Source of the DNA: a virus
Length of the DNA: 64,000 bases
Reading direction: 5' to 3' (one strand)
Virus record (IMG/VR): IMGVR_UViG_3300028734_000012
Span: 64,001-128,000 of that record
Every line of letters starts with the position of its first letter. The stretch's first letter is position 1. Position numbers and translations under genes: made by a program. Of the stretch, positions 12,871-18,634 are shown one piece after another. The notes beneath the pieces are model-generated. The model was not told where the DNA came from. It ran no database searches and saw only the letters and a list, made by a program, of their open reading frames with translations.

Positions 12871-12945
12871 ATCACTGTAATTTAACTGGTAAAATACGAA
12901 ACTGATAATTTCGATTTCTAAGTCCAAGTCTTAGCGGTGATACCA
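12871..12945 (+). tRNA. tRNA-Ile(GAT)
   Basis: Acceptor ATCACTG/CGGTGAT; anticodon arm CGAAA-CTGATAA-TTTCG; encoded CCA; T-loop slightly degenerate. Confidence 0.8.
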
Positions 12946-12948
12946 TTT

Positions 12949-12985
12949 GGGTTTGTCATATAATGGTTATTATGTGACGTGATTT
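12949..12985 (+). pseudogene. 5' half of an interrupted tRNA
   Basis: GGGTTTG acceptor strand and D-arm (ATATAATGGTTATTAT), with no adjacent 3' half. Confidence 0.5.
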
Positions 12986-12987
12986 AA

Positions 12988-13085
12988 ATAGGTTTTATAT
13001 TATAATTGCAATTATAATATAAGTAATTAATTTTATTACCACAATTAATAAAATTCCCTATAATATCTTTTATTGTGGAAAGGAT
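12988..13085 (+). ncRNA. HNH-leader three-way-junction/kissing-loop RNA, copy A
   Basis: Same length and structure as 16039-16136, with compensatory changes. Confidence 0.75.
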
Positions 13086-13092
13086 AATAATT

Positions 13093-13794
13093 ATGGATAT
13101 TAGTAAAAAGCAAATTGAAGAAACTGCAATACATTCTACTTCTTTAAGTGATTTGTTAGGAAATTTAGGTTTTACTAAAAGTGGTGCTAATACAAAAAAT
13201 TTAAATAAGTTAATTAAAGAATATAGCATTGAAACTAAATTTAATACTATAGTACATCGTATAGTAAATAATGATGACATATTTATTCAAGATAGTACTG
13301 CAAATCAATCAACTTTAAGACGTCATTATTATGAATTAACTAAAGAAAATTATCATTGTTATATTTGTGGACAAGAATCAGCATGGTTTGGAAAAGAACT
13401 TTCTTTAACATTAGACCATATTAATGGAGATAATCATGACGATAGATTTGAAAATTTAAGATGGATTTGTCCAAATTGTGATAGGCAACTTGATACTTTT
13501 AGTGGAAAAAATATTAAAAATAGAAAGTCTAAATTGTTAGATTCAAAAACGTGCAAAAGTTGTGGAAAAGAATTTATTCCTAAAAATACAATTCAAGAAT
13601 ATTGTTGTATAGAATGTGTCCATATATCTCAAAGAAAAACAATTAGACCATCTAAAGATGAGTTGTCAATATTAATTCGTAATTATACTTTTGTAGATTT
13701 AGGAAAGATGTTTGATGTTTCAGATAACACTATTAGAAAATGGTGTAAAATATATGGTTTACCATATTTAAAATCTGAAATTTTAAATACATAA
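13093..13794 (+). CDS. HNH homing endonuclease with Zn finger and C-terminal HTH
   Basis: CYICG...LTLDHINGDNHDDRFENLRWICPNCD; AAAGGA RBS before ATG 13093. Confidence 0.85.
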   Translation: MDISKKQIEETAIHSTSLSDLLGNLGFTKSGANTKNLNKLIKEYSIETKFNTIVHRIVNNDDIFIQDSTANQSTLRRHYYELTKENYHCYICGQESAWFGKELSLTLDHINGDNHDDRFENLRWICPNCDRQLDTFSGKNIKNRKSKLLDSKTCKSCGKEFIPKNTIQEYCCIECVHISQRKTIRPSKDELSILIRNYTFVDLGKMFDVSDNTIRKWCKIYGLPYLKSEILNT

Positions 13795-13801
13795 TTATTT
13801 T

Positions 13802-13876
13802 GGTTGTATAGTATAGCGATTATTACATCGGACTGTCACTCCGAAAATCAGAGTTTAACTCTCTGTATAACCGCCA
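13802..13876 (+). tRNA. tRNA-Asp(GTC)
   Basis: TCGGA-CTGTCAC-TCCGA anticodon arm; GCCA end; degenerate T-loop. Confidence 0.75.
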
Positions 13877-13880
13877 AATA

Positions 13881-13917
13881 ACAGTAAATCCGAGTTCGAT
13901 TCTCGGCATTCCCGCCA
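13881..13917 (+). pseudogene. 3' half of an interrupted tRNA
   Basis: Intact T-arm CCGAG-TTCGATT-CTCGG plus CATTCCC-GCCA, with no adjacent 5' half. Confidence 0.65.
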
Positions 13918-13952
13918 AAACCGTAAGTGATGGTTATATAATCACTTAATAA

Positions 13953-14030
13953 TACAGGGTAGAGAAGTTTGGTCATCTCATTAGGCTCATAACCTAAAAA
14001 TCGCTAGTTCGAATCTAGCCCCTGCAACCA
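13953..14030 (+). tRNA. tRNA-Met(CAT), initiator-like
   Basis: TTAGG-CTCATAA-CCTAA anticodon arm; GTTCGAATC T-loop; ACCA end. Confidence 0.8.
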
Positions 14031-14062
14031 AGGAAACCTATATCCTTTAAAGTAGGTGATAT

Positions 14063-14138
14063 ATCTGTTGGACGGTAAGGTATCGTTGTCTATCTCATAA
14101 GTAGATACAATTCGCTTCGATTGCGAAAGCAGATACCA
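14063..14138 (+). tRNA. atypical tRNA-Met/Ile2(CAT)
   Basis: ATCTGTT/AGCAGAT acceptor; TCTAT-CTCATAA-GTAGA anticodon arm; ACCA end; non-canonical D region. Confidence 0.6.
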
Positions 14139-14176
14139 GAATTTTATTTAGAATGGTGGTGTGTTATTAAACAATA

Positions 14177-14608
14177 ATGAAAAATGGTGAATACATATTA
14201 GTTGTTGCCCCAAAAAATTACGATGGTAAAAAATATAGAAATAAATATTGTTATGAACATATTTTAGTTTATTGGGAATATTATAAAATATTACCAAAGG
14301 ACAATGAAATTATACATCATATTGATGGTAATAAACATAATAATGACATATCTAATTTAAAATTAATGTCAAAATTAGAACATGATATATTACATAAAAA
14401 TAAAAGAGGAATTAAATTTGTAATGCTAAAATGTACTGGATGTGGTAAAATTTTCGAAAAAGAAAAGAGAAAAACATTTTTAATTAGTGGTGGAAAATTT
14501 ACTTGTTGTTGTCGTAAATGTATAGGTATAACCACTGGATTAAATCAAGAAGAAAAAAATAAAAGGATATCTCAAAATTTAATATATGAATTTACTAAAT
14601 ATAAATAA
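14177..14608 (+). CDS. HNH homing endonuclease
   Basis: YEH...IHHIDGNKHNNDISNL...H; C-terminal CxxC...CC..C. Confidence 0.85.
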   Translation: MKNGEYILVVAPKNYDGKKYRNKYCYEHILVYWEYYKILPKDNEIIHHIDGNKHNNDISNLKLMSKLEHDILHKNKRGIKFVMLKCTGCGKIFEKEKRKTFLISGGKFTCCCRKCIGITTGLNQEEKNKRISQNLIYEFTKYK

Positions 14609-14619
14609 ATCAATTATAT

Positions 14620-14691
14620 TCTGGTGTAACACAACGGTAGTGTAATTCCCTGTTAAGGAAAAGGCTGTTGGTTCAAGTCCAACCACCAGAG
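14620..14691 (+). tRNA. tRNA-Asn(GTT), no encoded CCA
   Basis: TCTGGTG/CACCAGA acceptor; TTCC-CTGTTAA-GGAA anticodon arm; GGTTCAAGTCC T-arm. Confidence 0.85.
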
Positions 14692-14692
14692 C

Positions 14693-14765
14693 GTTCCACA
14701 ATTTACAGTAACCTTTACGTGGTGTGGAATATCAACTATCTAAATTGATAGGCTAATAACTGTAA
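14693..14765 (+). ncRNA. HDV-like (theta) self-cleaving ribozyme 1
   Basis: P1 GTTCCAC/GTGGAAT, P2 TTACAGT/ACTGTAA, P3 ACC/GGT, L3 TTTACGT, P4 ATCAA/TTGAT, J4/2 GGCTAA. Confidence 0.75.
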
Positions 14766-14804
14766 TTATTAATAATAGGTATATAATCATAATAGAGAAA
14801 ACAT

Positions 14805-14878
14805 AGCACCATCGAATAAAAGTAATTCGCAAGGTTCTCAACCTTGTAATCTGGTGGCAGAATCCAGTGGTGTTACCA
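14805..14878 (+). tRNA. tRNA-Glu(CTC), atypical T-loop
   Basis: CAAGG-TTCTCAA-CCTTG anticodon arm; ACCA end. Confidence 0.65.
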
Positions 14879-14882
14879 ACAT

Positions 14883-14958
14883 GGCACATTAGGCAAGTGG
14901 ACTAAGCCGTCACCCTTTCACGGTGAAGACACCGTTTCAATTACGGTATGTGTCTCCA
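14883..14958 (+). tRNA. tRNA-Glu(TTC)
   Basis: TCACC-CTTTCAC-GGTGA anticodon arm; CCA end. Confidence 0.85.
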
Positions 14959-15010
14959 TAGTTCTCTTTTAGTGCTTTTCTATCTTTGCAAATAGTAAAA
15001 GCGCATTTAT

Positions 15011-15093
15011 GTCGAAGTGATGGAATGCATACATGCTAGTTTTAGAAGCTAGTGCCGAAAGGATTAGGAGTTCAAATCTCCTCTTCGACACCA
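15011..15093 (+). tRNA. tRNA-Leu(TAG)
   Basis: CTAGT-TTTAGAA-GCTAG anticodon arm; long variable arm; ACCA end. Confidence 0.85.
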
Positions 15094-15122
15094 TTGACAA
15101 TCTGGAAAGACAGATAAAATAT

Positions 15123-15197
15123 GGAAGATTAGCTTATGTGGTAAAGCAGTAGTCCGAAGAACTACGGAATCCTATTCGAACGAGGAATGTTCCACCA
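15123..15197 (+). tRNA. tRNA-Phe(GAA), atypical (C33, irregular T-arm)
   Basis: GTAGT-CCGAAGA-ACTAC anticodon arm; ACCA end. Confidence 0.6.
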
Positions 15198-15321
15198 GTT
15201 GAACAACGCAGGATACATATACGTTATAGGAGTAGGCACTAGTGCCCGCACCAAATTCTAAAAAATTAAGTAAATAGAGTGATATCCCTATCTGAAAGAT
15301 TTTTAAGTGTATCCAATATAT

Positions 15322-15396
15322 GGGGTCTGTAGTGTAATGGTAGCACGGAAAATTGTGATTTTTTAAGTAACAGTTCAATTCTGTTCATTCCCACCA
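15322..15396 (+). tRNA. tRNA-His(GTG)
   Basis: GAAAA-TTGTGAT-TTTTT anticodon arm; acceptor stem with two mismatches; CCA end. Confidence 0.7.
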
Positions 15397-15427
15397 AGCA
15401 ATAAGCACGGCTTTGTAGATGCTTTTA

Positions 15428-15486
15428 AAGACACACACAGCGATACAATAATAATAAAATATTTGCTTTTTATTAACTGTGTCTTG
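15428..15486 (+). ncRNA. ACAGC-stem RNA copy 3
   Basis: AAGACACA-CACAGCGA...TGTGTCTTG. Confidence 0.7.
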
Positions 15487-15565
15487 TTATCTAATTGGGT
15501 TCGTAACCTCAATTTCTTTGCGGCGAAGAGTTTAAATATGAGCCGAAAATAAGTTACGATTATAC

Positions 15566-15655
15566 GGAGAATAAACCAGACAGGCGAACTGGAACTGCCT
15601 TGAAAACAGATTGATGTTTAACAGCATTGGGTTTCGAGTACTCTGTTCTCCGCCA
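15566..15655 (+). tRNA. tRNA-Ser(TGA)
   Basis: GGAGAAT/GTTCTCC acceptor; CTTGAAA loop; long variable arm; GCCA end. Confidence 0.8.
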
Positions 15656-15764
15656 AATTAGTGTGAAAATGGAACAACCACGCTATCTTACCTATAGAGA
15701 GTTTAAATAAATATAGGTGTTGACCTAATTAGGGTAGTAAAACTAATTTGTTGTTCCAAAATAT

Positions 15765-15840
15765 GTACTATTAGTGTAAATGGCAAGCACTTCTGCCTTC
15801 CAAGCAGAGAATTTCGGTTCAAGTCCGAAATGGTACACCA
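15765..15840 (+). tRNA. tRNA-Gly(TCC)
   Basis: TCTGC-CTTCCAA-GCAGA anticodon arm; ACCA end. Confidence 0.85.
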
Positions 15841-15891
15841 AACCTACTTTTCTGTTGCTTGGCTGTAGATAATGTGGAACAGAATTTTTAT

Positions 15892-15963
15892 CGAGGATGA
15901 GTTGTAATGGTATGCATGTGTACCTTGGACGTATGCGGAGAGGTTCGATTCCTACATCTTCGA
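15892..15963 (+). tRNA. tRNA-Pro(TGG), degenerate, no encoded CCA
   Basis: CGAGGAT/ATCTTCG acceptor; CTTGGAC loop; GGTTCGATTCC T-arm. Confidence 0.65.
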
Positions 15964-16035
15964 GTTAGACAAGATAATATACCTCTATGTGGTGTCAAAC
16001 ATCAACTGTTATTTATAACAGGCTAAATTATTATC
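15964..16035 (+). ncRNA. HDV-like (theta) self-cleaving ribozyme 2
   Basis: P1 GTTAGAC/GTCAAAC (one mismatch), P2 GATAAT/ATTATC, P3 ACC/GGT, L3 TCTATGT, P4 CTGTTA/TAACAG, J4/2 GCTAA. Confidence 0.7.
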
Positions 16036-16038
16036 AAA

Positions 16039-16136
16039 ATAGGTTTTTATATAGTGTTGCAACATTATATAAAGTAATTAAACTAATTGCTACTATCAAT
16101 TAGTTTCCCTATTAAATCTTTTATAGTAGAAAGGAT
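16039..16136 (+). ncRNA. HNH-leader three-way-junction/kissing-loop RNA, copy B
   Basis: Structural homolog of 12988-13085. Confidence 0.75.
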
Positions 16137-16140
16137 AGAA

Positions 16141-16965
16141 ATGTTAAGTCAAGAAGAATTTGAAAAAAGAATATCTATTACATTTAATGATACGATTGAG
16201 ATTTTATCTGATTATAAGGGTAAGAGAAAAGACATAGAACTTAAATGTAAGAAATGCGGTTATCAATGGAATGTAGTTGCACAAAATGCAATGTATGGAA
16301 AACAAAGAAACTGTCCAGAATGTGAAATTGATAAAAAGAAAACAGGAGATTCTATAGTATGCGCTAATTGTGGCAAGAAAATATATAGAGTAAAGTCAAA
16401 GATGAGTAAATCAAAAAGTGGCTTGTACTTCTGTAATAGGAATTGTTCAAGTACATATTTTAATCATTCTAGTAATATAGTATCTATAAATAATTATAGA
16501 GATAAAGCTATAGATTATTATGGTGCAAAGTGTGAACTATGTGGAGACAATGAAGATATAAGATTATTAGATGTACATCATATTGATGAAAACAGATGTA
16601 ATAATGAAATTAATAATCTAATTGTTTTATGTGTTAAATGCCATGCTAAAATTACAAGAGGTATAGATAAACTTATTGATAGAACTCTGATAATAAATGA
16701 AGATAATATTGATAAAAATAACTCTGTGCATTGTAAGCCAGAAACAGTACATAAAAAATATTGTAAAATAAATTGTTATGATAAAACAGATAATCTAATA
16801 AAATCATTTAATAAAATGTCTGATGCATTAGATTGGTTAAAACAATTTTACCAAAATCCATCATCTACTCATATAATAGAATGTATCTTACATAAGAGAA
16901 AAAGTGCATATAATTATATTTGGGTTGGAGTGACTATAAATAAAAAGATACTTACAGCTATATAA
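16141..16965 (+). CDS. HNH endonuclease with Zn ribbons and C-terminal NUMOD1-like domain
   Basis: CELCG...DVHHIDENRCNNEINNLIVLCVKCH; KSAYNYIW; RBS before ATG 16141. Confidence 0.85.
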   Translation: MLSQEEFEKRISITFNDTIEILSDYKGKRKDIELKCKKCGYQWNVVAQNAMYGKQRNCPECEIDKKKTGDSIVCANCGKKIYRVKSKMSKSKSGLYFCNRNCSSTYFNHSSNIVSINNYRDKAIDYYGAKCELCGDNEDIRLLDVHHIDENRCNNEINNLIVLCVKCHAKITRGIDKLIDRTLIINEDNIDKNNSVHCKPETVHKKYCKINCYDKTDNLIKSFNKMSDALDWLKQFYQNPSSTHIIECILHKRKSAYNYIWVGVTINKKILTAI

Positions 16966-17023
16966 ATTAATGATTTAGAATATGAAATTGTATAGGAATA
17001 TTAAGCGTGTAAGCAGTATCTTG
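16945..17023 (+). ncRNA. ACAGC-stem RNA copy 4
   Basis: AAGATACT-TACAGCTA...AGTATCTTG; overlaps the last codons of the HNH gene. Confidence 0.7.
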
Positions 17024-17031
17024 TAAATGGA

Positions 17032-17101
17032 AAGGCACATACAGCTAATTTTAAAATCAAGAAGAATATTATAATTCTACTAATTTTTATTTAGTGCCTT
17101 G
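17032..17101 (+). ncRNA. ACAGC-stem RNA copy 5
   Basis: AAGGCAC-ATACAGCTA...GTGCCTTG. Confidence 0.7.
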
Positions 17102-17127
17102 TCAATAGTTTTAAGTAAAGAGGTCAT

Positions 17128-17886
17128 ATGGGAGAAAAAGAAAATAACAATTGTTCAGTGTATGTACATATTTTCCCTAATAGCAAACTATATTTTGGGA
17201 TTACTTCATTAGTACCACAAATACGATGGGGAAATAACGGAATAGGATATCAAGGTCAATGTGTATATAGTGCAATAAATAAATATGGTTGGGATAATAT
17301 TGAGCATATTATTTTATATGATAATTTGACGTTGGAACAGGCTAATAATTATGAAAAATTATTTATTAAATATTATGATACCAAAATTGATAATGGTAAT
17401 GGTTATAATGTTACAAATGGTGGTAATGGAACTTGTGGATACATATGGTCAGAAGAACAAAAATTAATTTTAAGTAAATCTCATATGGGATTAAATAATT
17501 TTATTAATAAGACTGAAAACGAAATGGAAGAAATAAATAAAAAGCGTAGTAAGTCAATAACAGAAACAATTAATTCGGAAGATTGGAAAGCAAAAAATAA
17601 AGGAATACATATAGGACATATAGTTTCTAAAGAGACAAAAGATAAAATAAGTAACTCTTTAATTGGATATAAACGTTCTGATTCTTTTAAAAAAAAATTA
17701 AGTGATATCCATAATATTCCTGTAATATGTGTATCAACAGGAGAAATATTTAAATCTACAAAAGAAGCAAGTAAGTTTTATAACTGTGATAGTTCAAATA
17801 TTACTGCATGTTGTAAAGGTAGGTTAAAAACAGCAGGTAAATTTAATGGAGTTAAGTTAGTATGGGAATATTGTACCAACATGTGA
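17128..17886 (+). CDS. GIY-YIG homing endonuclease with NUMOD3/NUMOD1 domains
   Basis: VYVH..PNSKLYFGIT, AINKYGWDN, E...I, GYN...GG, ITACCKG..KTAG. Confidence 0.8.
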   Translation: MGEKENNNCSVYVHIFPNSKLYFGITSLVPQIRWGNNGIGYQGQCVYSAINKYGWDNIEHIILYDNLTLEQANNYEKLFIKYYDTKIDNGNGYNVTNGGNGTCGYIWSEEQKLILSKSHMGLNNFINKTENEMEEINKKRSKSITETINSEDWKAKNKGIHIGHIVSKETKDKISNSLIGYKRSDSFKKKLSDIHNIPVICVSTGEIFKSTKEASKFYNCDSSNITACCKGRLKTAGKFNGVKLVWEYCTNM

Positions 17887-17986
17887 ATCATAACACATAA
17901 AAATAAAATGTGGCTAGTCGATTACTGCTTGGCTGATTGGTAGTATAGGTTATGTAGCCTTAGTTTTACTTTGACTATATAAATAT

Positions 17987-18062
17987 GGGGATATAATTCA
18001 TTTGGTAGAATATCTGCCTTGCAAGCAGAACGTGAACGGTTCAAATCCGTTTATCTCCACCA
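17987..18062 (+). tRNA. tRNA-Ala(TGC)
   Basis: GGGGATA/TATCTCC acceptor with G3:U70; TCTGC-CTTGCAA-GCAGA anticodon arm; ACCA end. Confidence 0.9.
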
Positions 18063-18159
18063 ACATATCAAGTCGGAATGGAGACATTAAACCCATATCC
18101 ATTCCAGAATAAAACTGTGAAAAATTGATGGTTATACTTCCATACAAAAAGTAATTTAT

Positions 18160-18233
18160 GGTCAATTATTTTAACGGTAGAATCTCTGTTTTGTAATCAG
18201 AAGATGCGGGTTCGATTCCTGCATTGACCTCCA
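18160..18233 (+). tRNA. tRNA-Thr(TGT)
   Basis: GGTCAAT/ATTGACC acceptor; TTTGTAA loop; CCA end. Confidence 0.8.
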
Positions 18234-18350
18234 CTTTCATTGACCTATATCTGCTTTGTTGCAAGAGTGGTGTAGAGAGAAAGCTTTAACTGTTTGTATG
18301 TATAACATGACTGCAACTATGTACTTTAGTACACAAAAACATTCGTTCAT

Positions 18351-18427
18351 ACGCTAATGGCTTAACTGGATAAAGCATCAGATTTCTAATCTGTGTATTG
18401 GGGGTTCAAGTCCCTCTTAGCGTACCA
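18351..18427 (+). tRNA. tRNA-Arg(TCT)
   Basis: ACGCTAA/TTAGCGT acceptor; CAGA-TTTCTAA-TCTG anticodon arm; ACCA end. Confidence 0.85.
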
Positions 18428-18432
18428 AATTA

Positions 18433-18488
18433 AAGATACTTACAGCTATTAAATAAAATCAAGCTTTATTGATAAAAATAGTATCTTG
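18433..18488 (+). ncRNA. ACAGC-stem RNA copy 6
   Basis: AAGATACT-TACAGCTA...AGTATCTTG. Confidence 0.7.
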
Positions 18489-18494
18489 TTATAT

Positions 18495-18568
18495 GGGGCA
18501 ATAGTCCAACGGTAGAACGTCAGCTTCCAAAACTGATTACGTGGGTTCAACTCCTACTTGCTTCGCCA
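18495..18568 (+). tRNA. tRNA-Trp(CCA)
   Basis: GGGGCAA/TTGCTTC acceptor; TTCCAAA loop; GCCA end. Confidence 0.8.
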
Positions 18569-18605: not shown

Positions 18606-18634
18606 AAACACCTATTTTTTATAGGTGTTTTTTT
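18606..18634 (+). terminator. intrinsic terminator ending the tRNA operon
   Basis: AAACACCTAT-loop-ATAGGTGTTT followed by a T-run. Confidence 0.85.

Follow-up and report, generated by a model that had tools for sequence, protein, structure and literature searches.

Two putative HDV-like ribozymes located directly behind CCA-less tRNA genes in the tRNA array of a phage genome

Two elements found in the tRNA array of a phage genome are most probably HDV-like ribozymes whose self-cleavage sets the 3' ends of CCA-less tRNAs of this phage, a reading to which we assign a probability of roughly 0.8. The first (copy 1) is located immediately behind the single tRNA-Asn gene of the whole phage and, judging from its sequence, is very probably a tRNA 3'-end-cutting ribozyme. 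The second (copy 2), which the original prediction did not report, lies behind a weak tRNA-Pro(UGG)-like gene. The HDV-type fold, the family to which the elements belong, the covariation, the exact adjacency to tRNAs and the link with a missing CCA were all observed here. The source is an IMG/VR virus record of 176,332 bp (ca. 89% complete, with a G+C content of 30.6%), of which bases 64001-128000 constitute the 64-kb window analysed; positions refer to this window unless given as genome positions. The features of the region are the following.

12871-18568, plus strand: tRNA array (ARAGORN and Rfam)
13075-13794, 14177-14608, 16087-16965 and 17128-17886, in the tRNA array: homing-endonuclease genes (PHROGs)
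14177-14608, plus strand: HNH endonuclease gene, immediately 5' of tRNA-Asn (PHROGs)
14620-14691, then C14692, plus strand: tRNA-Asn(GUU) (ARAGORN; Rfam RF00005, 65.4 bits)
14693-14765, plus strand: HDV-like ribozyme copy 1 (RF02682, 39.4 bits; model R2, 54.7 bits)
15893-15963, plus strand: tRNA-Pro(UGG)-like gene (Rfam tRNA, 27.1 bits for a cut-off of 29, match 15893-15962; no ARAGORN call)
15964-16035, plus strand: HDV-like ribozyme copy 2 (RF02682, 34.2 bits, match 15964-16033; model R2, 56.7 bits)
16087-16965, plus strand: HNH endonuclease ORF, ca. 50 nt 3' of ribozyme copy 2 (ORF list, PHROGs)
18606-18630, plus strand: terminator-like hairpin followed by a T run, behind the last tRNA of the array

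The array comprises 13 tRNAs detected by ARAGORN and two more detected by Rfam only, and the four homing-endonuclease genes that it contains correspond to three HNH genes and one GIY-YIG-like gene. The hairpin at 18606-18630 is likely the end of the tRNA-array transcript, while a promoter scan gave no more matches than expected by chance. Between ribozyme copy 1 and tRNA-Glu, a cloverleaf-like RNA occurs at 14804-14879 (MFE -22.4 kcal/mol, z = -3.7); it displays a D-like arm, an odd T-like arm, an acceptor-type stem that is long and terminates with ACCA, and an anticodon-like arm of 5-8 bp whose loop, UUCUCAA, would read CUC, and neither ARAGORN nor Rfam called it as a tRNA. An extra tRNA located at 15123-15194 was detected by Rfam only (37 bits) and missed by ARAGORN; its anticodon is GAA (Phe), position 33 is occupied by C rather than U, the T arm is poor and CCA is encoded.

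Read by eye, the sequence of copy 1 forms a complete nested double pseudoknot of the HDV type, with all helices present as listed here.

14693-14699 (GUUCCAC) with 14724-14730 (GUGGAAU), plus strand: P1, first pair G.U
14703-14709 (UUACAGU) with 14759-14765 (ACUGUAA), plus strand: P2, 7 bp
14711-14713 (ACC) with 14721-14723 (GGU), plus strand: P3
14714-14720 (UUUACGU), plus strand: L3
14731-14735 (AUCAA, reading AUCAAC with the next base), plus strand: J1/4
14736-14740 (CUAUC) with 14747-14751 (GAUAG), plus strand: P4, 5 bp with a 6-nt loop
14752-14758 (GCUAAUA), plus strand: J4/2
C14753, plus strand: presumptive catalytic C, first base of CUAA in J4/2 and equivalent of C75 of HDV

The HDV topology that the original prediction had placed from G14693 onwards, with the G.U first pair of P1 followed by P2, P3, P4 and J4/2, was found in full and at the very same positions. 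RF02682 (HDV-F-prausnitzii) aligns with 14693-14767 over its full model length (1-74), with a score that remains under the gathering cut-off of 44 bits and an E-value of 5.6e-7 for the 176-kb genome or of 2e-5 to 9e-5 for all Rfam families. This alignment starts at 14693 and includes C14753, in agreement with the cleavage proposed between 14692 and 14693 and with the presumptive catalytic C of GCTAA. The probability of a perfect 7-bp P2 occurring by chance in the right position is ca. 0.006, a helix that is scored neither by RF02682 nor by the leave-out model R2 presented below.

Copy 2, which RF02682 likewise aligns over model positions 1-74 with a score under the cut-off of 44 bits, is organised in the same way.

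15964-15970 (GUUAGAC) with 15994-16000 (GUCAAAC), plus strand: P1, one A.A mismatch, first pair G1-C
15973-15979 (GAUAAUA) with 16029-16035 (UAUUAUC), plus strand: P2, chance probability 0.012
15981-15983 (ACC) with 15991-15993 (GGU), plus strand: P3
UCUAUGU and AUCAA, plus strand: L3 and J1/4, respectively
16006-16010 (CUGUU) with 16017-16021 (AACAG), plus strand: P4
C16023, plus strand: presumptive catalytic C, in GGCUAA

The core ACCU.UA.GUGGUG, AUCAAC and GGCUAA is common to both copies, while almost all helix positions of P1, P2 and P4 have changed with pairing retained, i.e. in a compensatory manner. As in the HDV family, L3 of both copies has a U at its 5' end and a G at its 3' end, the bases of the metal-binding reverse wobble, and a two-pair P1.1 can be formed with the bases after P1', which consists of U:A and U.U in copy 1 and of U:A and C.U in copy 2. 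No further copy was found in the 176-kb genome. A third RF02682 match (genome 10869-10943, minus strand; 14 bits, E = 0.4) was regarded as noise, and a scan of the genome with a loose home-made descriptor was uninformative, with ca. 100 matches per strand and similar or higher numbers when A, G or U replaced the catalytic C.

Relatives were obtained by scanning JGI metagenome contigs, which yielded 22 loci, 20 of them with a full ribozyme and the AUCAAC junction, corresponding to 17 distinct sequences. Model R2 was built from the 17 unrelated metagenome sequences, the window copies being excluded to avoid circularity. In the 64-kb window, this model has exactly two matches (E of ca. 1e-10), namely 14693-14765 (E of ca. 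4e-10) and 15964-16035 (E of ca. 2e-10). The GGCUAA motif is invariant in all aligned family members (22/22). Pair counts were taken from the model-based alignment A2, since several rows of the MAFFT alignment A1 had P1 and P2 out of register: standard pairs occupy 89% of the pair cells, versus 65% after shuffling and 31-48% when partners were slid by 1-3 columns, and changes on both sides affect 6 of the 7 pairs of P1 and 4 of the 5 pairs of P4. For P2, which was assessed on per-sequence helices, at least 9 different helix forms occur across the family, each of them fully complementary.

Five distinct relatives (six loci, L022 being identical to L036) are linked to a tRNA and start right after the discriminator N73. 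Their partners are tRNA-Leu, tRNA-Arg and tRNA-Met in dense phage-like tRNA arrays, and their contigs encode a phage-type GroEL, a metallophosphoesterase and a HAD_SAK_1 RNA-repair domain. In two cases (L029:8988-11130 and L017:19-2144), the gene for the HAD_SAK_1 RNA-repair domain and that for the phage GroEL adjoin the tRNA array. Other relatives have no adjacent tRNA (L016, L018-L021, L023, L025-L028, L030, L031, L034, L035 and L037). Among these, a subgroup of the AUCAAC type (L019, L023, L025, L026, L028, L030, L031 and L037) shows a run of 8-10 A just before the cleavage site and a P1 that begins with C instead of G.

Searches elsewhere were negative. Pattern scans of IMG/VR, with the exact core or with AU after P1', returned no true relative, all matches being of the classic drz-Fpra type apart from two false positives; three pattern matches were found in 185,579 representative prokaryote genomes, none of which was backed by the model; and phage CBA120 (Ackermannviridae) had no match to model R1. 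Searching via the gene located after the array or via the exact 3' half of tRNA-Asn identified no relative, and searching via PhoH gave three distant loci devoid of tRNAs and ribozymes. That no close phage relative with the same locus was found in those searches was counted against our preferred reading.

The original prediction had labelled copy 1 as a theta ribozyme. Theta ribozymes are minimal HDV-like ribozymes associated with tRNAs in gut Caudoviricetes (Kienbeck et al. 2024, PMC10879173); those located next to tRNAs cleave in vitro, and the associated tRNAs, which are of all amino-acid types, encode CCA in 4.5% of cases (PMC10879173). The window copies resemble them by their HDV-type fold, by a predicted cleavage site within 1 nt of the 3' end of a phage tRNA, by the mostly CCA-less nature of the tRNAs concerned, by P3 (ACC/GGU), the ..ACGU of L3 and the CUAA of J4/2, and by the occurrence of a DRB0094-like RNA ligase in the genome. 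The published RNArobo descriptor for theta, however, specifies U-CC-NCGN for L3, GG after P1', and 5-8 nt replacing P4 followed by CUAA (PMC10879173). The window copies depart from it on three counts, namely UU or CU in L3, AU after P1' and a real P4. While the descriptor examples inspected all have CC and GG, L3 of the window copies reads U-UU-ACGU or U-CU-AUGU with AU after P1'; both copies carry a 5-bp P4 with a 6-nt loop, i.e. ca. 20 nt between J1/4 and J4/2; and they differ further by their AUCAAC J1/4 and by a P1.1 made of U:A with U.U or C.U. A further difference from theta is that the amber suppressor tRNA of this phage has a CCA and no ribozyme.

The theta label was not retained, the copies being closer to the P4-bearing drz-Fpra type represented by RF02682, their best match in Rfam, with which they share length and P4-bearing architecture. 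Conserved between the two are ACCUCUaCGUGGUG, the U and G of L3, CAAC, GGCUAA and a U-A first pair in P1.1. In contrast, drz-Fpra has AGGCAAC after P1', with a P1.1 of U-A and C-G and one base more; its IMG/VR members found here are not adjacent to tRNAs, unlike the window copies, and the latter score below the family cut-off. The expectation that standard motif searches would miss this variant was borne out, the theta descriptor having failed and both Rfam scores (39.4 and 34.2 bits) lying under 44. By function, the elements would be grouped with theta; structurally, they are a P4-bearing relative of drz-Fpra with an AUCAAC junction, outside both published detection schemes. In the literature searched, neither the AUCAAC variant nor any phage HDV-like ribozyme combining a P4 with linkage to a tRNA was found to be described.

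With respect to P1.1, the original prediction was correct in proposing a U-A first pair but not in regarding it as unusual, since this pair belongs to the drz-Fpra consensus and has precedents in Ackermannviridae and C. briggsae. HDV-like ribozymes from both sources have been crystallised, with a P1.1 of U:A over U:U and of U:A over C:U, respectively; they cleave at 4.2 and 9.3 per min, and a C-to-U change abolishes activity (PMC13635239). By the published description of P1.1, copy 1 is of the Ackermannviridae type, and copy 2 together with most AUCAAC-type relatives is of the C. briggsae type; for neither crystallised ribozyme does the paper state a tRNA context (PMC13635239). Because the same P1.1 types occur in these fast ribozymes, the variant P1.1 is no argument against activity.

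This bears on whether the two elements might be inactive look-alikes or decayed relics that do not cleave, as could be suspected from scores under the Rfam cut-off, from a P1.1 with a single Watson-Crick pair and from the mismatch in P1 of copy 2. Such a reading is made unlikely by the core, which is fully kept in two diverged copies with compensatory changes in their helices; moreover, the same types of P1.1 are active in solved ribozymes (PMC13635239), and a dead ribozyme would leave a long 3' tail on the only tRNA-Asn of the phage. We regard decay as highly improbable, although the sub-cut-off Rfam scores, the A.A mismatch of copy 2 and the marginal 27.1-bit tRNA that precedes it were also counted against the preferred reading.

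The tRNA-Asn has an acceptor stem UCUGGUG/CACCAGA with G14691 as discriminator and does not encode CCA; copy 1 starts 1 nt past the tRNA end given by ARAGORN, which is 2 nt past the discriminator. The Pro-like gene has the anticodon loop CUUGGAC, a short T stem and no CCA, and copy 2 starts 2 nt past the tRNA end given by Rfam. It can be read in two registers, G1-C72 with G73 and one additional A, A15963, or C15892-G15962, where A15963 would be the discriminator; the second reading, C1-G72 with A73, corresponds to the identity elements that bacterial tRNA-Pro usually has. Both copies therefore begin 1-2 nt after a tRNA discriminator, within the distance used to define tRNA association for theta (site at most 5 nt from the tRNA 3' end), and the probability of a ribozyme match starting by chance no further than 2 nt from a tRNA 3' end is ca. 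3e-4. Cleavage 5' of G14693 is predicted to leave tRNA-Asn ending in G73-C74, a correct start of CCA; the product envisaged in the original prediction, a discriminator G plus one C, corresponds to G14691 and C14692 in the ARAGORN and Rfam calls. For copy 2, the predicted product would end in G-A (G73 and A) or in A73 depending on the register, G-A being no direct start of CCA, a point also counted against the preferred reading.

Most tRNAs of this phage encode their CCA (20 of the 22 detected by ARAGORN in the genome, or 21 of 24 when two extra Rfam calls are included). No ribozyme occurs behind the 21 CCA-encoding tRNAs, versus two behind the three CCA-less ones, an association for which a hand calculation from the 24-gene counts gives a Fisher p of ca. 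0.01. Besides tRNA-Asn and the Pro-like gene, the third CCA-less gene is a tRNA-Pro(UGG) at genome 7271-7346 (minus strand), which is 5 nt from the start of the next tRNA (Tyr). This last gene has neither CCA nor ribozyme and was counted against the preferred reading; it is the sole CCA-less tRNA that must use another processing route. The amber suppressor tRNA(CUA), labelled Pyl by ARAGORN (genome 6145-6237, minus strand), encodes its CCA and has no ribozyme behind it. No clear signal of TAG recoding was found, as reading TAG as sense raises the coverage by long ORFs from 66% to 68%, with about the same effect for TGA.

These data also bear on the idea that the ribozymes mainly serve the downstream RNA, which would be stabilised or activated by its 5'-OH and compact pseudoknot, with tRNA trimming as a by-product. 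The targets would then be the HNH message for copy 2, which ends at 16035 with the HNH ORF starting within ca. 50 nt, and the tRNA-like RNA and tRNA-Glu for copy 1. Many family members indeed have no adjacent tRNA, and 42% of the published theta occurrences in annotated phage genomes stand alone as well (PMC10879173). Neither the start of both copies 1-2 nt from the discriminator nor the restriction of ribozymes to CCA-less tRNAs is accounted for in this way, and what follows copy 1 is a non-coding RNA together with tRNAs whose release by RNase P would occur anyway; overall, a primarily downstream role seems unlikely.

Alternatively, the link with the missing CCA could be an insertion footprint, a selfish homing-endonuclease cassette having landed at the tRNA 3' end and displaced the CCA, with the ribozyme repairing the damage. 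Four homing-endonuclease genes do interrupt the array and one of them is directly behind copy 2; for copy 1, however, the HNH gene precedes the tRNA instead of following the ribozyme. A search downstream of either copy, with up to 3 mismatches allowed, revealed no displaced tRNA 3' fragment. The HNH gene at 13075-13794 is preceded by a tRNA-Ile that bears a CCA and has no ribozyme, and the tRNA-linked relatives L017, L022, L029 and L036 are flanked by tRNAs and not followed by an endonuclease gene. Such a cassette fits copy 2 loosely and copy 1 not at all, and we consider this origin quite unlikely.

Under the preferred reading, in which the ribozymes set tRNA 3' ends, the array (plus strand) would be read as long transcripts. 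Once the P2' strand emerges from the polymerase, the ribozyme would fold into its nested double pseudoknot, with P1-P1.1-P4 and P2-P3 as stacks. C14753 (C16023 in copy 2), together with a Mg2+ held by the U/G pair of L3, would then drive the 2'-OH of C14692 to attack the phosphate that follows it. Self-cleavage leaving a 2',3'-cyclic phosphate is the established chemistry of the family (PMC13635239, PMC10879173). The tRNA-Asn would be released co-transcriptionally, ending in G73-C74 with such a cyclic phosphate, whereas the downstream RNA would begin with a 5'-OH, its 5' end being capped by the folded ribozyme, so that in the case of copy 2 the HNH mRNA would start with the ribozyme. The 5' end of the tRNA would be cut by RNase P, the cyclic phosphate would be removed, and C75-A76 would be completed by the host CCA-adding enzyme. 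Cleavage itself, healing of the end and CCA completion are what we infer from the features described above.

A candidate for the healing step is located at genome ca. 169.7-172.8 kb (minus strand; L041:6687-9806), where a gp30.3-like protein, an RNA ligase, a HAD_SAK_2 phosphatase and a NADAR protein are encoded, the phosphatase at ca. 171.3-171.8 kb. The ligase (PHA02142 OB fold and RNA_ligase, DRB0094-like) directly adjoins the HAD_SAK_2 RNA-repair phosphatase, and its DRB0094-like family is 140-fold enriched in theta-bearing phages (PMC10879173). The HAD_SAK_2 phosphatase may remove the cyclic phosphate, a role that a host enzyme could also fulfil. No gene for a PolyA_pol-type CCA-adding enzyme was found in the phage, so that CCA completion must rely on the host; this, too, was counted against the preferred reading.

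Ribozyme-made tRNA 3' ends have so far been documented only for the minimal theta motif, tuned on gut phages; the present elements would be HDV-like ribozymes of full size that have another core junction and the same predicted role. Since the theta descriptor and the Rfam threshold both miss this variant, the spread of ribozyme-processed viral tRNAs is probably underestimated. The healing of cyclic-phosphate ends was left open in the theta paper (PMC10879173), and the occurrence of ribozymes behind CCA-less tRNAs only, together with adjoining phosphatase and ligase genes, offers a simple testable model for it. More tentatively, and with rather less than even confidence, the AUCAAC-type P4-bearing HDV-like ribozymes might form a distinct, undescribed clade that independently cuts tRNA 3' ends in large-phage arrays well outside the gut and works with phage RNA-repair enzymes (HAD_SAK phosphatases and DRB0094-like ligases) that heal the cyclic-phosphate ends. 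If this is true, some large phages would run a host-independent route of ribozyme and repair enzymes for the maturation of CCA-less tRNAs.
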